Shown piece after piece: positions 2,075 through 59,270 of a stretch of DNA of 64,000 nucleotides. Within the stretch, counting starts at the first letter, position 1. The number at the start of each line of letters is the position of its first letter. This DNA comes from a virus, in the IMG/VR virus record IMGVR_UViG_3300031578_000004, positions 66,359 to 130,358 of that record; one strand, written 5' to 3'. The position numbers and the translations under genes are program-made. The notes under the pieces are model-generated. The model did not search any database and was not told the DNA's origin. It saw only the letters and a list, made by a program, of their open reading frames with translations.

Positions 2075-2572
2075 CTAATTTAAAGGCTTTTCAAATTCTA
2101 AATAATAATCATTCATATCTTTTACTATCAATGGGTTTTTATATACTTCTGAAAATGTCTGATTTAAAAAATCATATGAATCAATTTCACCGATAAAATC
2201 ATTATAATAGTCTATGCATTCTTCTCCGCTGGAAAAGTGTATATTAACTATATTATTCAAATTTGGTTTTTTACCTTCATATTCATAATTAAATCTTATA
2301 ATTGTATTATCTGCATATTTGATTAAAAAAGTTTCATCTTCACTCATCTCATTTGTTAGCCAATTTTCAATGCTATATTTCAAACATTGTTTTAAATCAC
2401 TTTTATAAATTTGTGTTTTATCTTGCTTTGATTGTCTTATATATTGTTTACACCAGCTTTGCTTGTCTAGTTTACTATTCATGTATTTTGGTTCTATTTG
2501 GTTTGTGTAATCTTCATGGGTTGTTGTTAGGTTTGTAAGGTTTAAAAACTCTTGATATAACATTGTTAACAA
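2075..2572 (-). CDS. Hypothetical protein
   Basis: 165-aa ORF with AAGGAG RBS and TTGACT...TAGTAT promoter-like element upstream. Confidence 0.65.
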   Translation of the reverse strand: MLTMLYQEFLNLTNLTTTHEDYTNQIEPKYMNSKLDKQSWCKQYIRQSKQDKTQIYKSDLKQCLKYSIENWLTNEMSEDETFLIKYADNTIIRFNYEYEGKKPNLNNIVNIHFSSGEECIDYYNDFIGEIDSYDFLNQTFSEVYKNPLIVKDMNDYYLEFEKPLN

Positions 2573-3413
2573 CTCCTTATTAATTTTTATAGTTATTATC
2601 TAATATACTACTACTACTATATGTAAGAGTCAATAGCATTATACTATTTATTTTTATAGTCTTTATTCCTTATTATATGAAGTGTTTTATTAGTTGGTGT
2701 ATTAATTGTGTAGTTGATATATAAGATAGTTTATAATCAATTGTAGTAGCTTGCAGAGGTATTGTAAAAGGTGATTGTATTGGTATAGATTGTATTGTCA
2801 ACTGCTTTATATTATATAGTTAACAATAGTATTGAGTTTGATTAGTTTGATTGTCAACTTTGATATTGTAGTTAGTTAACAATATGTATAATTAATATAT
2901 GAACATTATATGCCTTTAATGGTTTAATGTTCGTGTTTATTATGTGATATGTTTGATTGATATTAATTGAGTATTGAATAATAAAACACGAACATTATTA
3001 TTATATTAGTGTTTAATGTTCGGATATTATAATATGAATTGTATCGCTACAATTATAGTATATATTGTTTAATAGTGTATTAGTACATTGGTTAATTAGT
3101 GTAGTAACTAACCTTAATACTTCAGTGAGTTGTTCGCTGTTATTACTGCCGAATTTTAGGCATATTTATGCATTATATTGTAAGTCTATACAATTACATT
3201 GGCATCCTGCAAAGCTCCAATAAACAACATCAATATACTCTTATTATTCCCTATTTTTATTAACATAATACATAACATATCTTATAATAATCATTATAGG
3301 ATATGTTTTTAATATATAATAAATGACTGTAAAGCCTTATATATCAACGTTTACAAGGCTTTTACTGATATACAATCAACAAATCAGCTTATGTAGTGGG
3401 GCATAGTTTACAT

Positions 3414-3428
3414 TGATAATCATTATCA
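3414..3428. promoter_or_regulatory. Perfect Fur-box palindrome TGATAATCATTATCA
   Basis: Exact match to the 7-1-7 Fur consensus TGATAATnATTATCA. Confidence 0.55.
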
Positions 3429-4154
3429 TTTAGCAGGATGGAGCATGAGTACATCAACAAACACACCCACTTTAAAATACGAAATCGACTCTCCAAAATT
3501 ACATAAAAATACAAAACAAAAAACCCAAAAACCCTTCCTCACACTCGACTAAATTATCGTACACCCTTTTCCACTCCTATTCCATAAGGGGGCGTACATT
3601 AACAACCAACACACTAAAAACACCCTATACACCACCATACCCTTACAAAACACTAACATATTACGACTGTAATCCATAAACTCAATATCCAATAATCCAC
3701 TAAACCTATAAATACCAATACTTCAACTATATTTCTAATACTATATCTAAACCATAACCGAACACCATTTCACATACCCTCTCTCCAAATACCACATTAA
3801 TCCTAAACAAAACTTCCCACCCTTCCCATATAAATCTACCACTAAAATATAAACTATCTTAAAACTCATTACAATACCCAACTCCAAACCACCTCACTCC
3901 CAAATTCAAACCCCACTTCACGACAATAAAAAAGTAGGGCATTAAACCTTACTAAAAATTACACTATAATCCTTATCTTTTCCTTCAAACCATTCATGTT
4001 GTCTAACAAATCTTCTGGAAATATATAAATAGCACGATGTTTAATTGTTTCACAAGTTTCTATCTTTGCAATCGCATAAAAGTAAGTTATAAATAGAGGA
4101 ATTTGTGAAAAAATATAGAAGTAATATAAGAAATTTGCAAAAGGGGGAAACAAA

Positions 4155-4610
4155 ATGAAAAAATCAATTTTTAAACGTTGGTGGTTTTGGGTAATTATTG
4201 TTGTAGTTTTAATAGGTGCGATTAGTTCGCAAGGGGGAAATGATGTAACTCCAACACAAAGCACAGCTGCACCAGCTCCGGTAAAAGAGGTAATGCCAGA
4301 AGTTGTTGTTACTGCAGCAGACCTTTCTGCAGCTTTTGAAGCTAATGAAGTAAAAGCAAATAAGGATTATAAAGATAAATTAGCTGAAATTACAGGAACA
4401 GTTGACAGTGTCGGTGAAATGCTAGGTCAGACATTTGTAGTGTTATCATCTGGTAAAGATTTTTCAATTGTGAATGTTCAATGTTTTTTTGATGATAAAG
4501 CAGAAATAGATAAAATTGCTGAACTTAATAAAGGAGATACAGTTACTATTATGGGAAATATTGATGGAATGTCGATGAACGTAGGAGTAAATGGTTGCAT
4601 TCTTAAATAA
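4155..4610 (+). CDS. Membrane-anchored OB-fold protein (tRNA_anti-like family)
   Basis: N-terminal TM (KRWWFWVIIVVVL), then AFEANEVKANKDYKDK...ITGTV...KGDTVTIMG pattern typical of this family. Confidence 0.75.
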   Translation: MKKSIFKRWWFWVIIVVVLIGAISSQGGNDVTPTQSTAAPAPVKEVMPEVVVTAADLSAAFEANEVKANKDYKDKLAEITGTVDSVGEMLGQTFVVLSSGKDFSIVNVQCFFDDKAEIDKIAELNKGDTVTIMGNIDGMSMNVGVNGCILK

Positions 4611-4713
4611 ATATTAAAATATAAAAACTGTCTACAACTTTAAGTAGTCAGTTTTTTCTTTGGAATATATTCAATTAAATCTGTAAGACAAGCTATTTAA
4701 CAATCATTATAGT

Positions 4714-4740
4714 AAAAAAGCCAGAGCTTTCGCCCTGACT
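4714..4740 (-). terminator. Intrinsic terminator of the flagellin gene
   Basis: Minus strand GTCAGGGC-GAAA-GCTCTGGC followed by TTTTTT. Confidence 0.8.
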
Positions 4741-4770
4741 CCTTAATATATCTATTGTAAGTTTTTTCAA

Positions 4771-5640
4771 TTACCTTAATAATTGAAGTACACCTTGTGG
4801 AGCTTGGTTTGCTTGAGCTAACATAGCTGTTGCTGCTTGATTAAGGATGTTATTCTTGCTGAACTCCATCATTTCCTTTGCCATGTCTACGTCACGGATT
4901 CTAGATTCAGAAGCCGATAAGTTTTCTGATGATGTATCTAGATTCTTAATAGTATGTTCAAGTCTATTTTGCAATGCACCTAATTGTGATCTTTGTGTAG
5001 AAACTTGACTGATAGCTTCGTCGATAGCACCCAATTGATTGTCAAAAGATGTAAGGGTGCCGGATGCTCCAAAAGTTTCAACATCTATAGTATCCATTGT
5101 TAAAGACGAAGCAGGGGTGGCACCAATTGTACCTAATGCATCAGAGCCCATATCTGCCACGTTTATTTTTAACGTTTGACCCGCGTTAGCGCCAATTTGT
5201 AAATCAATACTAACAGCTGAATAAGCTCCATTCAACAAAGTTTTTCCATTGAATTCTGTTCTGTCTGAAATTCCTGTAATTTCATCTGATAAAGCAGTTA
5301 TCTCAGTTTGAATTGCTGCTAAATCTTCATCTGCGTTTGTTCCGTTACCAGCTTGAACAACTAGCTCACGCATACGTTGCAAAATTGCATGTGATTCGTT
5401 TAATGCACCTTCTGCCGTTTGTATCAATGAAATACCATCTTGTGAGTTTCTTGAAGCTTGATTTAACCCTCTGATTTGACCTCTCATTTTTTCTGAGATA
5501 GAAAGACCAGCAGCGTCATCTCCTGCTCTATTGATTCTTGAACCTGATGATAACTTCTCCATTGACTTGGCATTGGCATTTGCATTGATACCTAATTGTC
5601 TGCTTGTGTTCATTGCCATTATGTTCGTGTTTATTCTCAT
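4771..5640 (-). CDS. fliC: Flagellin (short, Bacillota type)
   Basis: MRINTN...EKLSSGSRINRAGDDAAGLSISEKMRGQIRGL; C-terminal SRIRDVDMAKEMMEFSKNNILNQAATAMLAQANQAPQGVLQLLR. Confidence 0.98.
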   Translation of the reverse strand: MRINTNIMAMNTSRQLGINANANAKSMEKLSSGSRINRAGDDAAGLSISEKMRGQIRGLNQASRNSQDGISLIQTAEGALNESHAILQRMRELVVQAGNGTNADEDLAAIQTEITALSDEITGISDRTEFNGKTLLNGAYSAVSIDLQIGANAGQTLKINVADMGSDALGTIGATPASSLTMDTIDVETFGASGTLTSFDNQLGAIDEAISQVSTQRSQLGALQNRLEHTIKNLDTSSENLSASESRIRDVDMAKEMMEFSKNNILNQAATAMLAQANQAPQGVLQLLR

Positions 5641-5669
5641 AAAATTTCCTCCTTAGACGCGTTAATTTA

Positions 5670-5681
5670 CACATCCATGTG
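5670..5681 (-). promoter_or_regulatory. CsrA-binding hairpin in the flagellin leader
   Basis: Minus strand CAC-ATGGAT-GTG with ANGGA in the loop, plus AAGGAGG Shine-Dalgarno; same arrangement as the B. subtilis hag leader. Confidence 0.7.
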
Positions 5682-5708
5682 ATTTATTTACAAACTGATA
5701 TTATCAGT

Positions 5709-5927
5709 CTATATCGATATTAAAGGTTTGACTAATTCTGTTCTCAAAATTTGTATACTCTTTGGAGCATCTATTGCTACTCTAAACAAGTCACCACTTG
5801 TTTTTAGAAAGAATATAGAAATTACTCCATCTGAGGTTTGAAACTTGATTGACTCACCAACTTTTCTACCTAAAACCAACCCTCCTATGTTGTTTACTTT
5901 TGATGATTTCTTTATTATATTGCTCAT
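5709..5927 (-). CDS. csrA: Carbon storage regulator CsrA/RsmA
   Basis: LVLGRKVGESI...VAIDAPKSIQILRTEL matches the CsrA signature; N-terminal extension. Confidence 0.88.
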   Translation of the reverse strand: MSNIIKKSSKVNNIGGLVLGRKVGESIKFQTSDGVISIFFLKTSGDLFRVAIDAPKSIQILRTELVKPLISI

Positions 5928-6008
5928 TTGTTTTCCTCCTTGATTGATTCGGTAGTTTATTTAGTAGTTCCATCTACAAAATTTGTTGTTTTGTTGTCCT
6001 TAGTTATT

Positions 6009-6035
6009 ATATCGGAATATTTTAATAATACATTA
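6009..6035 (-). promoter_or_regulatory. Sigma-D (FliA)-like promoter for csrA-fliC
   Basis: Minus strand TAAT-N15-TCCGATAT versus consensus TAAA-N15-GCCGATAT. Confidence 0.6.
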
Positions 6036-6439
6036 GTGATTTTTTTAGATTTTTTTAATATAAGTGGAATGTTCGTTTTTACTTATTTATCTCAACCTCA
6101 ACCGTAACCTTCTTGCCCTTTTCCCCCGACCTTATAATCCCCACGATATAGCAGTGTTACTGTCTCCACGTTCCTCCGTTTTTAATACCATTTTATCACA
6201 TCTACAATTTAAAAACCGTTCTCTGTAGCAAAACTAATTTGTCAGCGTACAAACTGCGGGGAATTAAACCCGTCTTTGATTAAAGCAACCCCCATTATGT
6301 CAATTATATAGCATCAACTGTACAATGTAAGCATTGATAAAAACGACACAGAATTGATTGTAGATTAATTCAATTTTAAATTGTCACCTTTCAATATCAT
6401 TTAAACATGACCTATATTTTAATATTTTTTTACTCTGCA

Positions 6440-54333: not shown

Positions 54334-56049
54334 ATGGGTTATAATAGGTCAAATTTTCCAAACCAATACGACCTCTTTCCAGAACTTTATGATGTTTCGC
54401 CATCAGATAGTCAAGATTTAGATATTTTATTTACTTTGCAAAAAATTATAAATAGAACCCCAACTGAAGAGATACAATACCAAAGTTTATTAACAACATA
54501 TAATAATAAAATAATAAATGCTGAGAAATTAAATTATTTTCAAGATAGTGTAACAGCTACCCAGAAATTTTTTAAAGATTCTGTAGATAGTTATATTAAT
54601 TATTCAGGAGTCTATAATATTAATGCTCAGTATGTAATTTACAATACAGTAAAGTCAGCAACAGGAGATATATATTTAGCATTAAAAAATAATATTGGAA
54701 TGCCATTGACTGATAGTATAGCATGGACAAGGATTTCATCAAAGGGAGATAAAGGAGATAAGGGAGATTCAATAAAAGGAGATGCGGGAATTGGATTAGC
54801 ATTCGTTGGAGCATACGACCCATCAGCAACATATATGCTAAACCAAGCTGTCGAATACAACGGTAGTTTATATGGTTGTATATCCGCAATACCTGTAACT
54901 GGAATATCTCCAAGTAATATAATTAATTGGAGTATGGTAGTTTCTAAAGGTAGCTCAACTTTCTTAGCCGTTTTGCGAAATTCAGTTACAGTAAATACGA
55001 ATATATCTAGTTTACCTATAGGTATTGTAGGTTTCAATATGAATACTGACCAAATTTTTGTATATAAAAACAAAGAGTATATTGAACAAAATCAAGAATA
55101 TGTATTGAGTAGTAATGGAACGAACATTGAAAAAACAAGTGACACTTGGAATGGATTAACTGTGCCAATTTATTTTAACTTTGTAGTATTTAAAAATATA
55201 GTGCAAGGAGTAACTTTAAGTGATGGAAGCTTAATTCAGATTAATAGTATTACATTAGATAAATTAAATGTGGGTATACAAAGTCAGATTAATAAAGTCG
55301 GCGATTCCTTTTTACAAACTACTGCTCAAAATTTGAGTGGAGGTCTAAACGAATTAAAAATAGTAGTTGATAGTAGTGCAATAGCCGTTGCTAAGAAAAT
55401 TGAAAATAAAGGCAATACCCCTGCTATTCAATCTGGACTAGATGCGTCAAAACCCAACCCTATTACAAATATCAATGAAATATATGTAGCTACAGATTCT
55501 AAGAAAATTTATAGAAGCAATGGTGTTGCTTATGATATGATAGGCGGTTCATCTACAGTTACAGATAATTTTGTGAGCAAAACTCAATTAGAAATTGATG
55601 CAAGCGATTTAAAATTTACAGGTACTAAAAAAGTAGATTTATTATGTTGGGATGGACAATCCGTTTATAAAAGTACATTGACAACAGGGAGTATTGGTCT
55701 AACAAGTCTGACAATCAACAATTTAAGATTTGGTAATTATGTTCTAATGATTAGGTTTAAATCTGCTAATAATGCTTTAGCTACAAACGCAATTAACGCA
55801 AGTGTGTTGAAGAATATTAGTGGTGTATTTACAAGTATTTTAAATGCAAGTAGAAATATAAAAGCAAATGAATTTACTAATATAACAGACTACCAATGTT
55901 TTTATATTAATTTTAAATATTCAGGTATAAAAGCAACTAACAACGAATTAAAAATTAATATAGATTTATTAATACAAACTGTAGCTTATGAAGTAAGTTT
56001 AGATTGTATTCAAATTATGCCTGTTGGAATGGGTGTATTTACTTTTTAA
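54334..56049 (+). CDS. Tail fibre / receptor-binding protein
   Basis: SNFPNQYD start, short collagen (KGDKGDKGD), CBM5/12-like YDPSATY...VEYNGSLY repeats, LQTTAQNLSGGLNEL fibre motif. Confidence 0.7.
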   Translation: MGYNRSNFPNQYDLFPELYDVSPSDSQDLDILFTLQKIINRTPTEEIQYQSLLTTYNNKIINAEKLNYFQDSVTATQKFFKDSVDSYINYSGVYNINAQYVIYNTVKSATGDIYLALKNNIGMPLTDSIAWTRISSKGDKGDKGDSIKGDAGIGLAFVGAYDPSATYMLNQAVEYNGSLYGCISAIPVTGISPSNIINWSMVVSKGSSTFLAVLRNSVTVNTNISSLPIGIVGFNMNTDQIFVYKNKEYIEQNQEYVLSSNGTNIEKTSDTWNGLTVPIYFNFVVFKNIVQGVTLSDGSLIQINSITLDKLNVGIQSQINKVGDSFLQTTAQNLSGGLNELKIVVDSSAIAVAKKIENKGNTPAIQSGLDASKPNPITNINEIYVATDSKKIYRSNGVAYDMIGGSSTVTDNFVSKTQLEIDASDLKFTGTKKVDLLCWDGQSVYKSTLTTGSIGLTSLTINNLRFGNYVLMIRFKSANNALATNAINASVLKNISGVFTSILNASRNIKANEFTNITDYQCFYINFKYSGIKATNNELKINIDLLIQTVAYEVSLDCIQIMPVGMGVFTF

Positions 56050-56082: not shown

Positions 56083-56982
56083 ATGTCATTAAAAAGAGAT
56101 AATTTCCCTTCTTCTACAGATTTTAGAAATTTAAAATCAAGAGTAAAAGCAGAAATGCTAAGAAGAAGTGGATATGGAACTTTAGTTGCATTCGGCGGAG
56201 CAACTTATGATTATACAGTAGTGCCTAAAGTTGATGACCTACCTAAGATTGAACATTATTCTAAAATTAGAGATGTAATGACAAATATAAATATAGCTTC
56301 TGTCGGTATGACTGTTAAAAAAGCTGATGATTTAGTAGCTGAAATGGTAGTATTAGAGGCTAATATGACAGTATTTGAAGCAAAGCCAAGAGGTGAGAGA
56401 AGTACTAGTGATTGTAGTTCTTTATGTACGGGTACTTGTATATCAGCTTGTACTACTACATGTACGGGAACTTGTTCAGGATATTGTACTGGTTGCACGG
56501 GAACTTGTTCAGGAGGTTGTACTAGTTGTACGGGAACTTGTTCAGGAGGTTGTACTAGTTGCACAAGCTGTACTGGTTGCACGGGAACTTGTTCAGGAAG
56601 CTGTAGTGGTTGCACGGGCTGTACTAGTTGCACGGGAACTTGTTTAGGATATTGTACTAGTTGCACAAACTGTACTGGTTGTACGGGAACTTGTTCAGGA
56701 GGTTGTAGTGGTTGCACGGGCTGTACTAGTTGCACAAACTGTACTGGTTGCACGGGAACTTGTTCAGGAGGTTGTAATGCCTGTCCTAGTGGTTGTGGAA
56801 GCTCTTGTTTTGGGGGTTGTTCCACTGGTTGTGGGGACTGTACTGGTACTTGTGTTGGTTGTACTGGTGGTTGTACTGGTGGTTGTTGGAATGGGTGTGA
56901 CGGGAGTTGTGGTACAGGATGTTCTATATGTACTAGTTGCACAGGTTGTTCTGGTGCTTGTGGTTTAAGTTGTACTTGTTAA
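56083..56982 (+). CDS. Cys-rich CxxC/CxxxC repeat protein, putative radical-SAM modification target
   Basis: 110-aa Cys-free N-domain followed by about 54 Cys in 189 Cys/Thr/Gly/Ser-rich residues. Confidence 0.85.
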
Positions 56983-57000
56983 AAAAAAGGGAGGGTTATT

Positions 57001-57573
57001 ATGAGAATATTAAATGATGTGGAGTTAACATTACTTAGAGGTGAGATGTACGCTTCGATAGCTAAAAATGGTATTGTAACTGTAGAGTTGGTTAAGGATT
57101 ATAGAGATTCTATTCTAGATATTTCAGAATATAATAAAAAACCAAGTATGATAGTAAGAAATATTTTAAATGCTTTAAGTTGGAATATATCAAATTATTC
57201 TAATGACTTAGAAGTGGTTTCCGATAATTATAGAGCATTATTACAAATGGTAAATGATAATATAGAAGAGATAAATATAGATTTCTTTTATAATACGTAT
57301 AAAATCTCCTGTGCTAAATATAATATAAATCTTATGAATAAAATAAATCTTGTTACTAGAATAGAGATACTTGAATTATGTGATAGTATGATAATACCTA
57401 TGGATTATATTAATGAGAGTGTAGATATGAAGAATTTACTATTACGTTCTTACTTAGAAAAGTATGAAGTTTATAGTAGTAAAATACCAGCATTCTCAGA
57501 TAAATTAAAAGAGTTGATAGTTATAAGAAATGATGTTGTTAATGCTCAATATCAGTATGAATTATTTAATTAA
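57001..57573 (+). CDS. Hypothetical helical protein inside the rSAM cassette
   Basis: GGAGG RBS, 190 aa. Confidence 0.7.
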   Translation: MRILNDVELTLLRGEMYASIAKNGIVTVELVKDYRDSILDISEYNKKPSMIVRNILNALSWNISNYSNDLEVVSDNYRALLQMVNDNIEEINIDFFYNTYKISCAKYNINLMNKINLVTRIEILELCDSMIIPMDYINESVDMKNLLLRSYLEKYEVYSSKIPAFSDKLKELIVIRNDVVNAQYQYELFN

Positions 57574-57590
57574 AAGATAGGAGAAGGATT

Positions 57591-57914
57591 ATGGAAATTA
57601 AGAGAGTAATAATAGGCGAGGATATTTCTGATTATCTTCAACGATTGAATTATGAATTGTTAGGCTACAGAAATCTTATAAGTAGCTTAGTGACTAATAC
57701 AAATTCAGAATTAAAATATACAGATAATCATTATAGACAGCTAATGCAAGAATATAGGAAATTAAATATAGAGTATATGTTGTCTATGGATGAATTGAAA
57801 CAAGAATATATTCCAGATGTTGAGATGAAAGAGAGCGTAGTATCAATAAGCATAAACTTTGATAAATGTGAAGTTCTATTTTATACAGGTGGGGGTTGTT
57901 CTATACATGAATAA
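57591..57914 (+). CDS. CXXX-repeat modification system accessory protein (putative)
   Basis: 107 aa, helical, ending INFDKCEVLF; overlaps the rSAM start; resembles the small partner of CXXX-repeat maturases. Confidence 0.6.
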   Translation: MEIKRVIIGEDISDYLQRLNYELLGYRNLISSLVTNTNSELKYTDNHYRQLMQEYRKLNIEYMLSMDELKQEYIPDVEMKESVVSISINFDKCEVLFYTGGGCSIHE

Positions 57915-59217
57915 ATCAAGTATGTTTCAAGATATCTTCCCTAACTTGTACCCTGAATTAAGAAGTGGAGAGTTAATGGTAAAGACAATAACTCTGGTAA
58001 ATACACAAGATTGTAATTTAAGATGTACTTATTGTTATGAGCATGGAAAAGGAGAGGGGAAAGTAATGCCAATATCAATAGCTAAAAAGACTATTGATAT
58101 GTTATTTAAGAGTGATATTGAGAATTCTAAATACTTAAATAATAAAAATGCAACTGCACTTATTCTTGAGTTTATAGGTGGTGAGCCTTTCCTAGAGATA
58201 GATCTCTTAGATGAAATAGTAGAATATTTTAAATATAAAGCAATTACTTTAAATCATAGATGGAAGACATATTATATGATAAGTATAAGCACTAATGGAA
58301 TTTTATATCTGGATTCAAAAGTACAGAGGTTTCTTAAAAAGAATGATGGAAGAATTAGTGTTACAATAACTATAGACGGAAATAAAGAGTTACACGATTC
58401 TTGTAGAGTATTCCCAAATGGAGAAGGAAGTTATGATATTGTTGAGAAGGCTTATAAGAAATATTTATCTCAAGATTTGAATGATAGAAAAGCGACTAAA
58501 TTAACATTGGCTCCTGCTAATGTTAGTTATCTTTTTGAAGCAACAAAACATTTATATAATATGGGTTTAACTCATGTTTTTGCTAATTGTGTGTTTGAAG
58601 AAGGGTGGACTAAAGAACATGCATTAATATTATATAATGAGATGAAAAAACTTGCAGATTATCTTATTGAGGATGAAAAAATAAATAAGTATACATGTAC
58701 TTTATTTGAACCCACTTTGGGTAAATCTATGTTAGAGACTGATAATGAAAATTGGTGTGGAGGAACTGGTAAGATGTTAGCTATTGATTGTGATGGTATA
58801 GTATATCCATGTTTAAGATATCTTCCCTTTTCCCTTAAAGAGGGTTTAGAACCTATTGTAGTAGGAGATGTTAATAATGGAGTAGCCATTCTTCCTGAAC
58901 ATAAAGAAAAAATGGAAGAACTTAATTTAATAACAAGACGTAGTCAATCTACAGATGAGTGTTTTAATTGTCCCATAGCTTCTGGATGTGCTTGGTGTTC
59001 AGCTTATAATTATGAAGTGTTTGGAACTCCTAATAAGAGAGCGACTTTCATATGTGTGATGCATAAAGCAAGGGTTTTAGCTAATAATTATTTATGGAAT
59101 AAATTGTTTATAGCTAGAGGGATGAAAACTAGAGAACCTTTGAATATTCCTAAGGAGTGGGCGTTGGAAATTATATCTGAAGAGGAATATAATATGTTAG
59201 AAGATTTATCTAAATAA
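57907..59217 (+). CDS. Radical SAM/SPASM peptide maturase (CXXX-repeat target family-like)
   Basis: CNLRCTYC, FIGGEP, STNG, and SPASM cysteines CGG...YPC...CFNCPIASGCAWC...C. Confidence 0.93.
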   Translation: MNKSSMFQDIFPNLYPELRSGELMVKTITLVNTQDCNLRCTYCYEHGKGEGKVMPISIAKKTIDMLFKSDIENSKYLNNKNATALILEFIGGEPFLEIDLLDEIVEYFKYKAITLNHRWKTYYMISISTNGILYLDSKVQRFLKKNDGRISVTITIDGNKELHDSCRVFPNGEGSYDIVEKAYKKYLSQDLNDRKATKLTLAPANVSYLFEATKHLYNMGLTHVFANCVFEEGWTKEHALILYNEMKKLADYLIEDEKINKYTCTLFEPTLGKSMLETDNENWCGGTGKMLAIDCDGIVYPCLRYLPFSLKEGLEPIVVGDVNNGVAILPEHKEKMEELNLITRRSQSTDECFNCPIASGCAWCSAYNYEVFGTPNKRATFICVMHKARVLANNYLWNKLFIARGMKTREPLNIPKEWALEIISEEEYNMLEDLSK

Positions 59218-59234
59218 GTAGTGAATTAAAATAA

Positions 59235-59270
59235 AAAGAGGTGGATATCAATGTACTTATCCACCTCTTA
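59235..59270 (+). terminator. Hairpin closing the rSAM cassette
   Basis: AAGAGGTGGATA...TATCCACCTCTT inverted repeat. Confidence 0.65.

Follow-up and report, generated by a model that had tools for sequence, protein, structure and literature searches.

A CXXX-repeat radical SAM/SPASM cassette with a cysteine-rich, two-domain target in the tail module of a phage

Radical S-adenosylmethionine (SAM)/SPASM enzymes are usually studied as makers of small secreted peptides. We analyzed a 64,000-nucleotide stretch of viral DNA (the window; the final 64 kb of the 130,358-base IMG/VR record IMGVR_UViG_3300031578_000004, G+C ~28%), in which four co-oriented genes on the plus strand encode a 299-aa cysteine-rich target protein, a 190-aa protein, a 107-aa small partner and a radical SAM/SPASM enzyme within a block of tail genes. 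This cassette is, with high confidence, a variant of the bacterial CXXX-repeat radical SAM system that belongs to phage tail modules. It differs from the bacterial versions in that its partner is divergent, a second maturase and an export route are missing, and the target bears a new N-terminal domain (N-domain). Judging from these sequences, a large phage of anaerobic bacteria probably uses the cassette to staple a tail-associated protein chemically. As a whole, the observations are best explained, in our mildly favorable estimate, by a modified accessory of host adsorption and not by a secreted peptide. The same machinery is tied to a two-domain protein among host-recognition genes in well over 100 sequence clusters of uncultured phages, and no publication on CXXX-repeat radical SAM genes within the tail modules of phages was found in the literature searched. 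The four genes are laid out as follows:

56083 to 56412, plus strand: target residues 1-110, the N-domain, a small bundle of helices characteristic of the phage family (profile matches, AlphaFold)
56413 to 56982, plus strand: target residues 111-299 and stop codon, the Cys-rich tail, mostly Cys, Gly, Thr and Ser (spacing, composition)
57001 to 57573, plus strand: 190-aa protein, subgroup-specific (open reading frame, iterated profile)
57591 to 57914, plus strand: 107-aa small partner, a divergent TIGR04116 relative (iterated six-frame profile)
57907 to 59217, plus strand: radical SAM/SPASM maturase, 436 aa from ATG 57907 (TIGR04115, Pfam, motif)

Comparison with curated profiles placed the enzyme in TIGR04115, the family that the earlier note on this DNA had named for it; it scored 446.5 bits against a cutoff of 350, over profile positions 2-358 of 359 (447 bits in a search of the whole record). 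The next-best families were PapB NF047865 (191.7 bits, cutoff 340) and the SCIFF maturase TIGR03974 (123.4 bits, cutoff 425), followed by QhpD TIGR03906 (115.2 bits, cutoff 453), all three of which are thioether-forming going by their NCBIfam names. TIGR03942 gave 64.1 bits and the HxsB model 75.4 bits (cutoff 370). The Pfam domains Radical_SAM (33.8 bits), Fer4_12 (30.8 bits) and SPASM (21.5 bits) were all at or above cutoff, and the radical SAM motif CNLRCTYC (CX3CX2C) could be read in the translation. The open frame runs from 57859 to 59217 on the plus strand (452 aa counted from TTG 57859), but a start at ATG 57907, which lies behind a GGTGGGGG stretch and has an 8-nt overlap with the 107-aa gene at its stop, is more likely. 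The closest solved chain was 5wgg_A ('Radical SAM domain protein', E 4.2e-25), which we take to be CteB, and 4k37_A matched at E 1e-9. Residue 93 of 5wgg_A aligns to residue 22 of the enzyme, which is without the first ~90 residues of that chain.

The earlier note had also named the 107-aa partner as TIGR04116; the homology was borne out by an iterated profile, but the protein falls outside the curated family. It gave no curated family match even at E<=10 (the TIGR04116 cutoff is 50 bits), and a close phage relative reached 16.9 bits on that model. The iterated six-frame partner profile recovered the 91-aa true TIGR04116 protein (104.6 bits) of a bacterial-type locus, L002, at E 1e-19 to 5e-20, and found relatives in 62 of the 63 sources, the sole miss being L054, which is truncated just after the target start. 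In eight loci (L006, L007, L025-L027 and L030-L032) the partner is continuous in frame with the N-terminus of the enzyme, and two of these partner-enzyme fusions scored 415.8 and 423.9 bits on TIGR04115. The fusion slot is where 5wgg_A carries the ~90 residues missing from the enzyme. Because of the in-frame fusions and the homology to a TIGR04116 protein, we take the partner to be the enzyme's N-terminal module in detached form. It probably serves substrate docking and would occupy, fused in some phages and separate in others, the slot in which related enzymes carry a substrate-docking domain.

The substrate of this pair is expected to be the tail of the target (open reading frame 56083-56982, plus strand). 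All 54 of its cysteines, the number expected from the earlier note, lie within the 189 residues that begin at C111, and the 53 Cys-to-Cys intervals comprise 30 of i+4, 22 of i+3 and one of i+2. Over 44 distinct family members the tails consist of 25% Cys, 23% Gly, 16.5% Ser and 11.5% Thr, and 79.5% of their Cys spacings are i+4; Asp makes up 2.8% of tail residues, so that Asp and Glu are near-absent. The tail opens with a conserved junction, C-x3-C-x-G-x-C-x3-C-x3-C, in which C111, C115, G117 and C119 are invariant and C123 is nearly so; C127 is likewise invariant (65-sequence alignment). Residues 125-299 were without predicted secondary structure, at a predicted local distance difference test score (pLDDT) of ~40, in an AlphaFold2 model based on 65 sequences. 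An unstructured tail beside a confidently modeled N-domain is as expected of a region that needs modification for order. The DNA of the tail, which is the longest among 62 examined, contains tandem repeats with units of 33, 51 and 102 nt (82-93% match). In three public DNA runs labeled soil metagenome, the contigs match the flanks exactly and all end between ~56514 and ~56747; because these contigs break in the repeats, the repeat number and the figure of 54 cysteines depend on the assembly of this record. Long frames of 86-228 aa that overlap the region (56256-56942 on the minus strand, and 56375-56968 on the plus strand in other frames) are by-products of the repeat composition, not genes.

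The 299-aa target matched neither TIGR04114 nor TIGR04117, the curated models searched, although the target of locus L001 reached 21.3 bits on TIGR04114 (cutoff 20) and that of L008 33.4 bits on TIGR04117 (cutoff 50). It is also unlike a classical precursor of a peptide that is made on the ribosome and modified after translation (RiPP), being 299 residues long with a folded N-domain and having no peptidase, transporter or immunity family among its neighbors. By analogy with thioether-forming SPASM enzymes, the enzyme would modify the Cys tail with the aid of its TIGR04116-like partner and install many Cys-derived cross-links, giving a rigid, protease-resistant ladder; we regard thioether ladders as an evenly balanced proposal for the chemistry. 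PapB links Cys to acidic residues. The PapB-type ranthipeptide and SCIFF/CteB-type maturases are the best-scoring characterized families and are likewise SPASM radical SAM enzymes that join Cys sulfur to carbon, but the phage enzyme lies far below their cutoffs, and their substrates are short, leader-bearing peptides, whereas the phage substrate is a two-domain protein. For modification of Cys in a protein subunit, not in a secreted peptide, the SPASM precedents are QhpD/QhpC and the anaerobic sulfatase maturases, to which the matches to TIGR03906, TIGR03942 and chain 4k37_A point as sequence relatives. These belong to other families with other substrates, modify few sites compared with the 54-Cys ladder and have no phage context.

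A different reading of the tail, which we consider unlikely, is that it is chiefly a metal or iron-sulfur scaffold of a metallothionein-like kind, or that it receives a non-thioether modification from an enzyme whose chemistry is unlike that of its relatives. The composition is compatible with this, as one residue in four is Cys and the remainder are small residues, with acidic acceptor residues near-absent. The enzyme scored below the cutoff of every characterized family, and bacterial homologues use the twin-arginine translocation (Tat) pathway, which carries folded, often cofactor-bearing proteins. However, a SPASM maturase and a partner are strictly linked to the target, and metal binding alone would need neither; moreover, Cys cross-linking is the activity of all the nearest named families. 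This alternative concerns the chemistry and is compatible with a role of the protein in the virion.

The bacterial CXXX-repeat system, of which Haft and Basu reportedly gave the original description in 2011, provided the main comparison; no experimental paper on it was found in the literature searched. The L002 sequence (MT837480.1, 6.8 kb) is labeled 'Bacteriophage sp.' but looks bacterial, and no phage gene was recognized on it. At 2222-6270 it carries a bacterial-type system with a 174-aa target bearing a twin-arginine signal, a TIGR04115 enzyme, TIGR04119 (235.3 bits), a TIGR04116 partner and the export genes TatA (50.3 bits) and TatC (200.8 bits). Among the Clostridia sampled, TIGR04115 was above cutoff in two of 399 scored genomes (2 more were unscored), i.e., the center genome with its prophage and genome G132. 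Contig 8 of G132 (L072/L073) encodes a 728-aa TIGR04115-TIGR04119 fusion (489.3 and 268.1 bits), a TIGR04116 partner (84.7 bits), an ATP-binding cassette (ABC) exporter (ABC_membrane plus ABC_tran) and a two-component regulator (a LuxR-type regulator with a kinase), as well as another radical SAM/SPASM gene and an ABC ATPase with an FtsX permease; no Cys-rich frame of >=35 aa was found there within 19 kb.

The phage system shares with the bacterial one a full TIGR04115 member, a small partner of the TIGR04116 kind and a target with Cys at every third or fourth residue. Both bacterial loci have TIGR04119, but the phage-type sources lack it: there were 0 matches in the 130-kb record, and a six-frame profile found it only in L002 among the 63 sources. 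Export is provided for by the Tat signal and Tat genes of L002 or the ABC exporter of G132, whereas no Tat-like motif occurred in any of 62 phage targets. The phage targets, at 180-300 aa or longer, instead have a folded 110-residue N-domain; their partner is under the curated cutoff, and their location is in tail modules. The L002 target has the motif S-C-x3-C-x-G-L-C-T-T-T-C, the same opening as in the phage Cys tails, although the shared junction rests on this single bacterial target because G132 yields no Cys-rich frame. This one example suggests that the first repeats are what the enzyme reads, with the destination of the product being set by the N-terminal part (Tat signal or N-domain). 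The first repeats (C-x3-C-x-G-x-C-x3-C) would be the likelier candidate for the recognition element, and the N-domain would replace the bacterial Tat signal.

That the target has an N-domain of about 110 residues in place of a short leader, as the earlier note had stated, was supported by structure prediction. In the full-length AlphaFold2 run, residues 11-100 formed a helical bundle at pLDDT 91-95, with helices at 11-27, 35-38, 56-67, 71-74 and 81-100. The proposed likeness of its N-terminus to tail-associated proteins could not be reproduced: the first ~10 residues are not conserved, and no tail family or solved fold was matched. The sole PHROG match of the target was weak and to a family of unknown function (phrog_6085, E 0.0026). 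The best VIA Z score was 6.0, to generic helical bundles, a level that the tool itself calls uninformative for bundles. TssK was rejected as a fold relative, as its Z of 4.7 is within the helical-bundle noise, and matches in BFVD were uncharacterized gut-phage proteins that are apparently family members. A 'RDNFPS'-like start common to the adjacent fiber and the target was put down to chance, since the target start is not conserved and the N-terminus of the fiber is absent from other loci.

Longer relatives keep the last N-domain helix and the junction and add extra domains. In the protein P0049, residues ~42-297, between N-domain and Cys tail, match phrog_5499 'host range and adsorption protein' (E 2.5e-14) and the tail protein family phrog_1330 (E 7.8e-12), with weaker matches to tail-tip and receptor-binding families and Pfam CBM_4_9 below threshold. 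In P0083 the N-domain is joined to a Cys-free region with a weak tail-fiber match (E 0.0042). Fusions of this type give the best indirect indication that the protein has a role at the surface of the particle.

Furthermore, the distribution of the family was examined. Seven close relatives of the N-domain (50-56% identity) all have a Cys tail, and 114 representative proteins matched at E<=1e-3 among 1.84 billion. These divide into 70 with a clear Cys-rich tail, 29 short fragments and 15 others, the last comprising four that are borderline Cys-rich, three long ones that look like chance or repeat matches and the rest without Cys; some of the Cys-lacking representatives look frameshifted, and P0073 and P0088 resemble frame errors. 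A single-protein scan of viral contigs with the enzyme gave no match, whereas an alignment-based scan yielded 54 N-domain loci in IMG/VR viral contigs. Bacterial genomes (185,579 species at one genome each) yielded six, all from Bacillota: two from Vallitalea, one each from Desnuesiella (D. massiliensis, L058) and Papillibacter, and two from Bacillota metagenome-assembled genomes. At least four of the six (L057-L059 and L062) have genes for the sheath, the baseplate wedge or the tape measure beside them. In 59 of the 60 N-domain loci the enzyme is adjacent, the exception being L054, which ends 175 bases after the target start. Two gene orders occur, target-(~180-aa protein)-partner-enzyme and partner(-fused)-enzyme-target. 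L035 (6013-10651) and L036 have a single maturase set with an N-domain/Cys-tail target on either side; the open frame of the enzyme is broken into two parts (143 + 307 aa), and a tape-measure gene lies downstream, not upstream.

All called open reading frames of these loci were clustered by BLAST, and one representative per recurrent neighbor cluster was scanned against PHROGs. The labels obtained were tape measure, tail sheath, baseplate wedge, Dit, tail proteins and tail fibers, including collagen-like ones. A tail-cluster gene lies within 5 kb of 58 of the 61 cassettes and within 1 kb of 39, and the cassettes form ~18 gene-content groups that include sheath-bearing and sheath-less backbones. 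N-domain targets are thus found almost only in phage or prophage tail modules. The contrary possibility raised in the earlier note, that homologous cassettes are mostly chromosomal, fails for the N-domain subtype, although the wider family does have ordinary chromosomal systems.

The window itself shows the same setting. The plus strand has tail-module character from 47368 on, and the first gene product of this module (1845 aa) has 34% identity (tblastn) to a 1597-aa protein of L035 that matches tape-measure PHROGs. Two smaller genes lie between this gene and that of a 571-aa tail fiber, which directly precedes the cassette, and on the 3' side are a protein of unknown function (phrog_27355), a tail protein (phrog_1887) and then a 724-aa fiber with Phage_fiber_rpt. 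Spacing is tight from the fiber gene through the cassette (gaps of 33, 18 and 17 nt). The flanking features are:

54334 to 56049, plus strand: tail fiber, 571 aa (phrog_26419 tail fiber, E 1.7e-17)
59236 to 59269, plus strand: closing hairpin with a 12-bp stem and a 10-nt loop (-18.4 kcal/mol, z -4.1)

None of 200 shuffles folded as well as the hairpin, which was not flagged by a simple consensus terminator scan, having a 10-nt loop and a weak T run. Open reading frames, PHROG matches and folding therefore agree with the arrangement first described, four co-oriented genes between tail-fiber and tail genes that are closed by a hairpin. The reported absence of a transporter, peptidase or immunity gene nearby holds for the nine proteins between 53261 and 63625, in Pfam, NCBIfam and PHROG searches.

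This setting bears on where the product acts. We rate it as balanced to slightly favored that the product is a tail-associated component of the particle. The modified protein could instead act outside the particle, as a lysis-released effector on the host cell or on competitors, e.g., in superinfection exclusion, defense or counter-defense, with the N-domain as a functional or targeting domain. Products of the bacterial CXXX systems leave the cytoplasm through Tat or an ABC transporter and therefore act outside it; in addition, the N-domain has no detectable similarity to tail proteins. The antiphage system HXS offers a precedent, as its proven effector HxsA, a repeat protein with an extra domain, is matured by HxsB/HxsC, one or both of them radical SAM enzymes, with a small protein, HxsD (PMC13128918). 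HXS resembles the phage cassette in combining a repeat protein plus added domain, radical SAM maturation and a small accessory, and in that its product acts as a protein; it differs in its His-Xaa-Ser repeats, its location in a bacterial defense locus and its periplasmic effector with a signal peptide (PMC13128918). However, all 62 phage targets are without a signal peptide or a Tat-like motif, and no exporter lies beside the cassette of the window. The cassettes occupy the late tail-fiber block in 58 of 61 cases across ~18 backbones, not lysogeny or moron positions, and P0049 places an adsorption/tail-type domain in the same chain. We consider an effector somewhat unlikely.

The fiber gene upstream raises another alternative, namely that the target is an assembly factor for the neighboring fiber, like the tail-fiber assembly proteins whose genes come right behind those of fibers, and is absent from the finished particle. 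In most maps the target directly follows a fiber-type gene (clusters c2 or c30 upstream). Residues 402-571 of the 571-aa fiber are 41-46% identical to the C-termini of the fibers just upstream of the target in L005/L058 and L062, and in the subgroup of the window this domain is co-inherited with the target; by iterated profile, only the closest relatives (5 of 63 sources) have the C-terminal ~170 residues along with the cassette. A chaperone, however, has no obvious need for an enzyme-modified 54-Cys tail, and the N-domain is conserved while the adjacent fiber tips are not. This explanation seems quite improbable to us.

Several observations weigh against a modified tail-associated protein, the reading that we prefer. 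No family member has been seen in a virion, and no demonstrated reaction was found for any TIGR04115 enzyme in the literature searched; because acidic residues are near-absent in the tail, the chemistry cannot simply be that of PapB. The N-domain has no match to Pfam, NCBIfam or any tail PHROG family, no solved fold was found for it (Foldseek against the PDB gives none at E<=1e-3), and no cultured phage with it was found by tblastn in 50,697 phage records. Since the enzyme and partner are its only universal neighbors and the adjacent fiber varies, the N-domain could serve the enzyme and not the virion. Loci L003, L004 and L055 are without an annotated tail-cluster gene. The cassettes are also non-independent, as the two largest groups hold 22 and 14 of the 61; the viral collection consists of viral sequences by design, and the tail labels found for a single representative of each BLAST cluster were extended to its other members.

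In the model that we favor, a two-part protein consisting of a helical N-domain of ~110 residues and a disordered tail of ~190 residues would be made late in infection, with the tail genes. Once the Cys tail was modified, the N-domain would act as a handle that holds or assembles it with the tail-fiber/baseplate apparatus. If the product is on the particle, it would be a new kind of covalent reinforcement for phage structural biology, to be set beside HK97-type capsid cross-links. It would provide the enzymology of RiPPs with a natural substrate of protein size that has dozens of sites, and phage engineering with a possible route to protease-resistant fibers. The phage version also offers a compact three- or four-gene set for testing the reaction of the CXXX family.

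A more specific form of this model, which we put forward tentatively and think possible but not probable, is that the enzyme-stapled Cys ladder is the exposed, host-contacting tip of the tail fiber, and that in-frame gain or loss of DNA repeats tunes its length and surface. If so, it would be the first virion protein finished by RiPP-type radical chemistry, and anaerobe phages would possess a protease-proof, rapidly evolvable adhesin. The T-even gp38-type adhesins are small proteins encoded after the fiber gene, with an attachment domain and a Gly-rich, low-complexity receptor-binding part. They serve as a working analogy only: no sequence or fold similarity to them was found for the N-domain, and gp38 does without a modifying enzyme.

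The 190-aa protein is confined to the subgroup of the window (8 of 63 sources by iterated profile). It had no Pfam, NCBIfam or PHROG family above threshold, a word-index search returned only the protein itself, and its Atlas model (pLDDT 0.43) gave no usable Atlas match. Against same-slot proteins elsewhere, hhalign gave weak probabilities of 38% and 1.7%, and 89% for cluster c12 to L010_191.

Finally, two observations were made on genes outside the cassette family. In Salmonella phage SPN3US (L074, NC_027402.1), frames 2097-2489, 2500-2904 and 2920-3126 encode short Cys-repeat proteins, each with a ~50-residue head and a tail with Cys at every fourth residue, between the virion structural gene gp099 and the radical SAM genes gp102 and gp103. 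Proteomic searches of SPN3US could miss these proteins because RefSeq gp100 (2573-2908) is annotated in another frame. The L028/L037 group (e.g., L037 11137-15808) has a reverse transcriptase (phrog_1423, Pfam RVT_1) 4-5 kb downstream of the cassette, on the far side of a phrog_5302 tail protein; it possibly represents a diversity-generating retroelement that acts on a neighboring tail gene.

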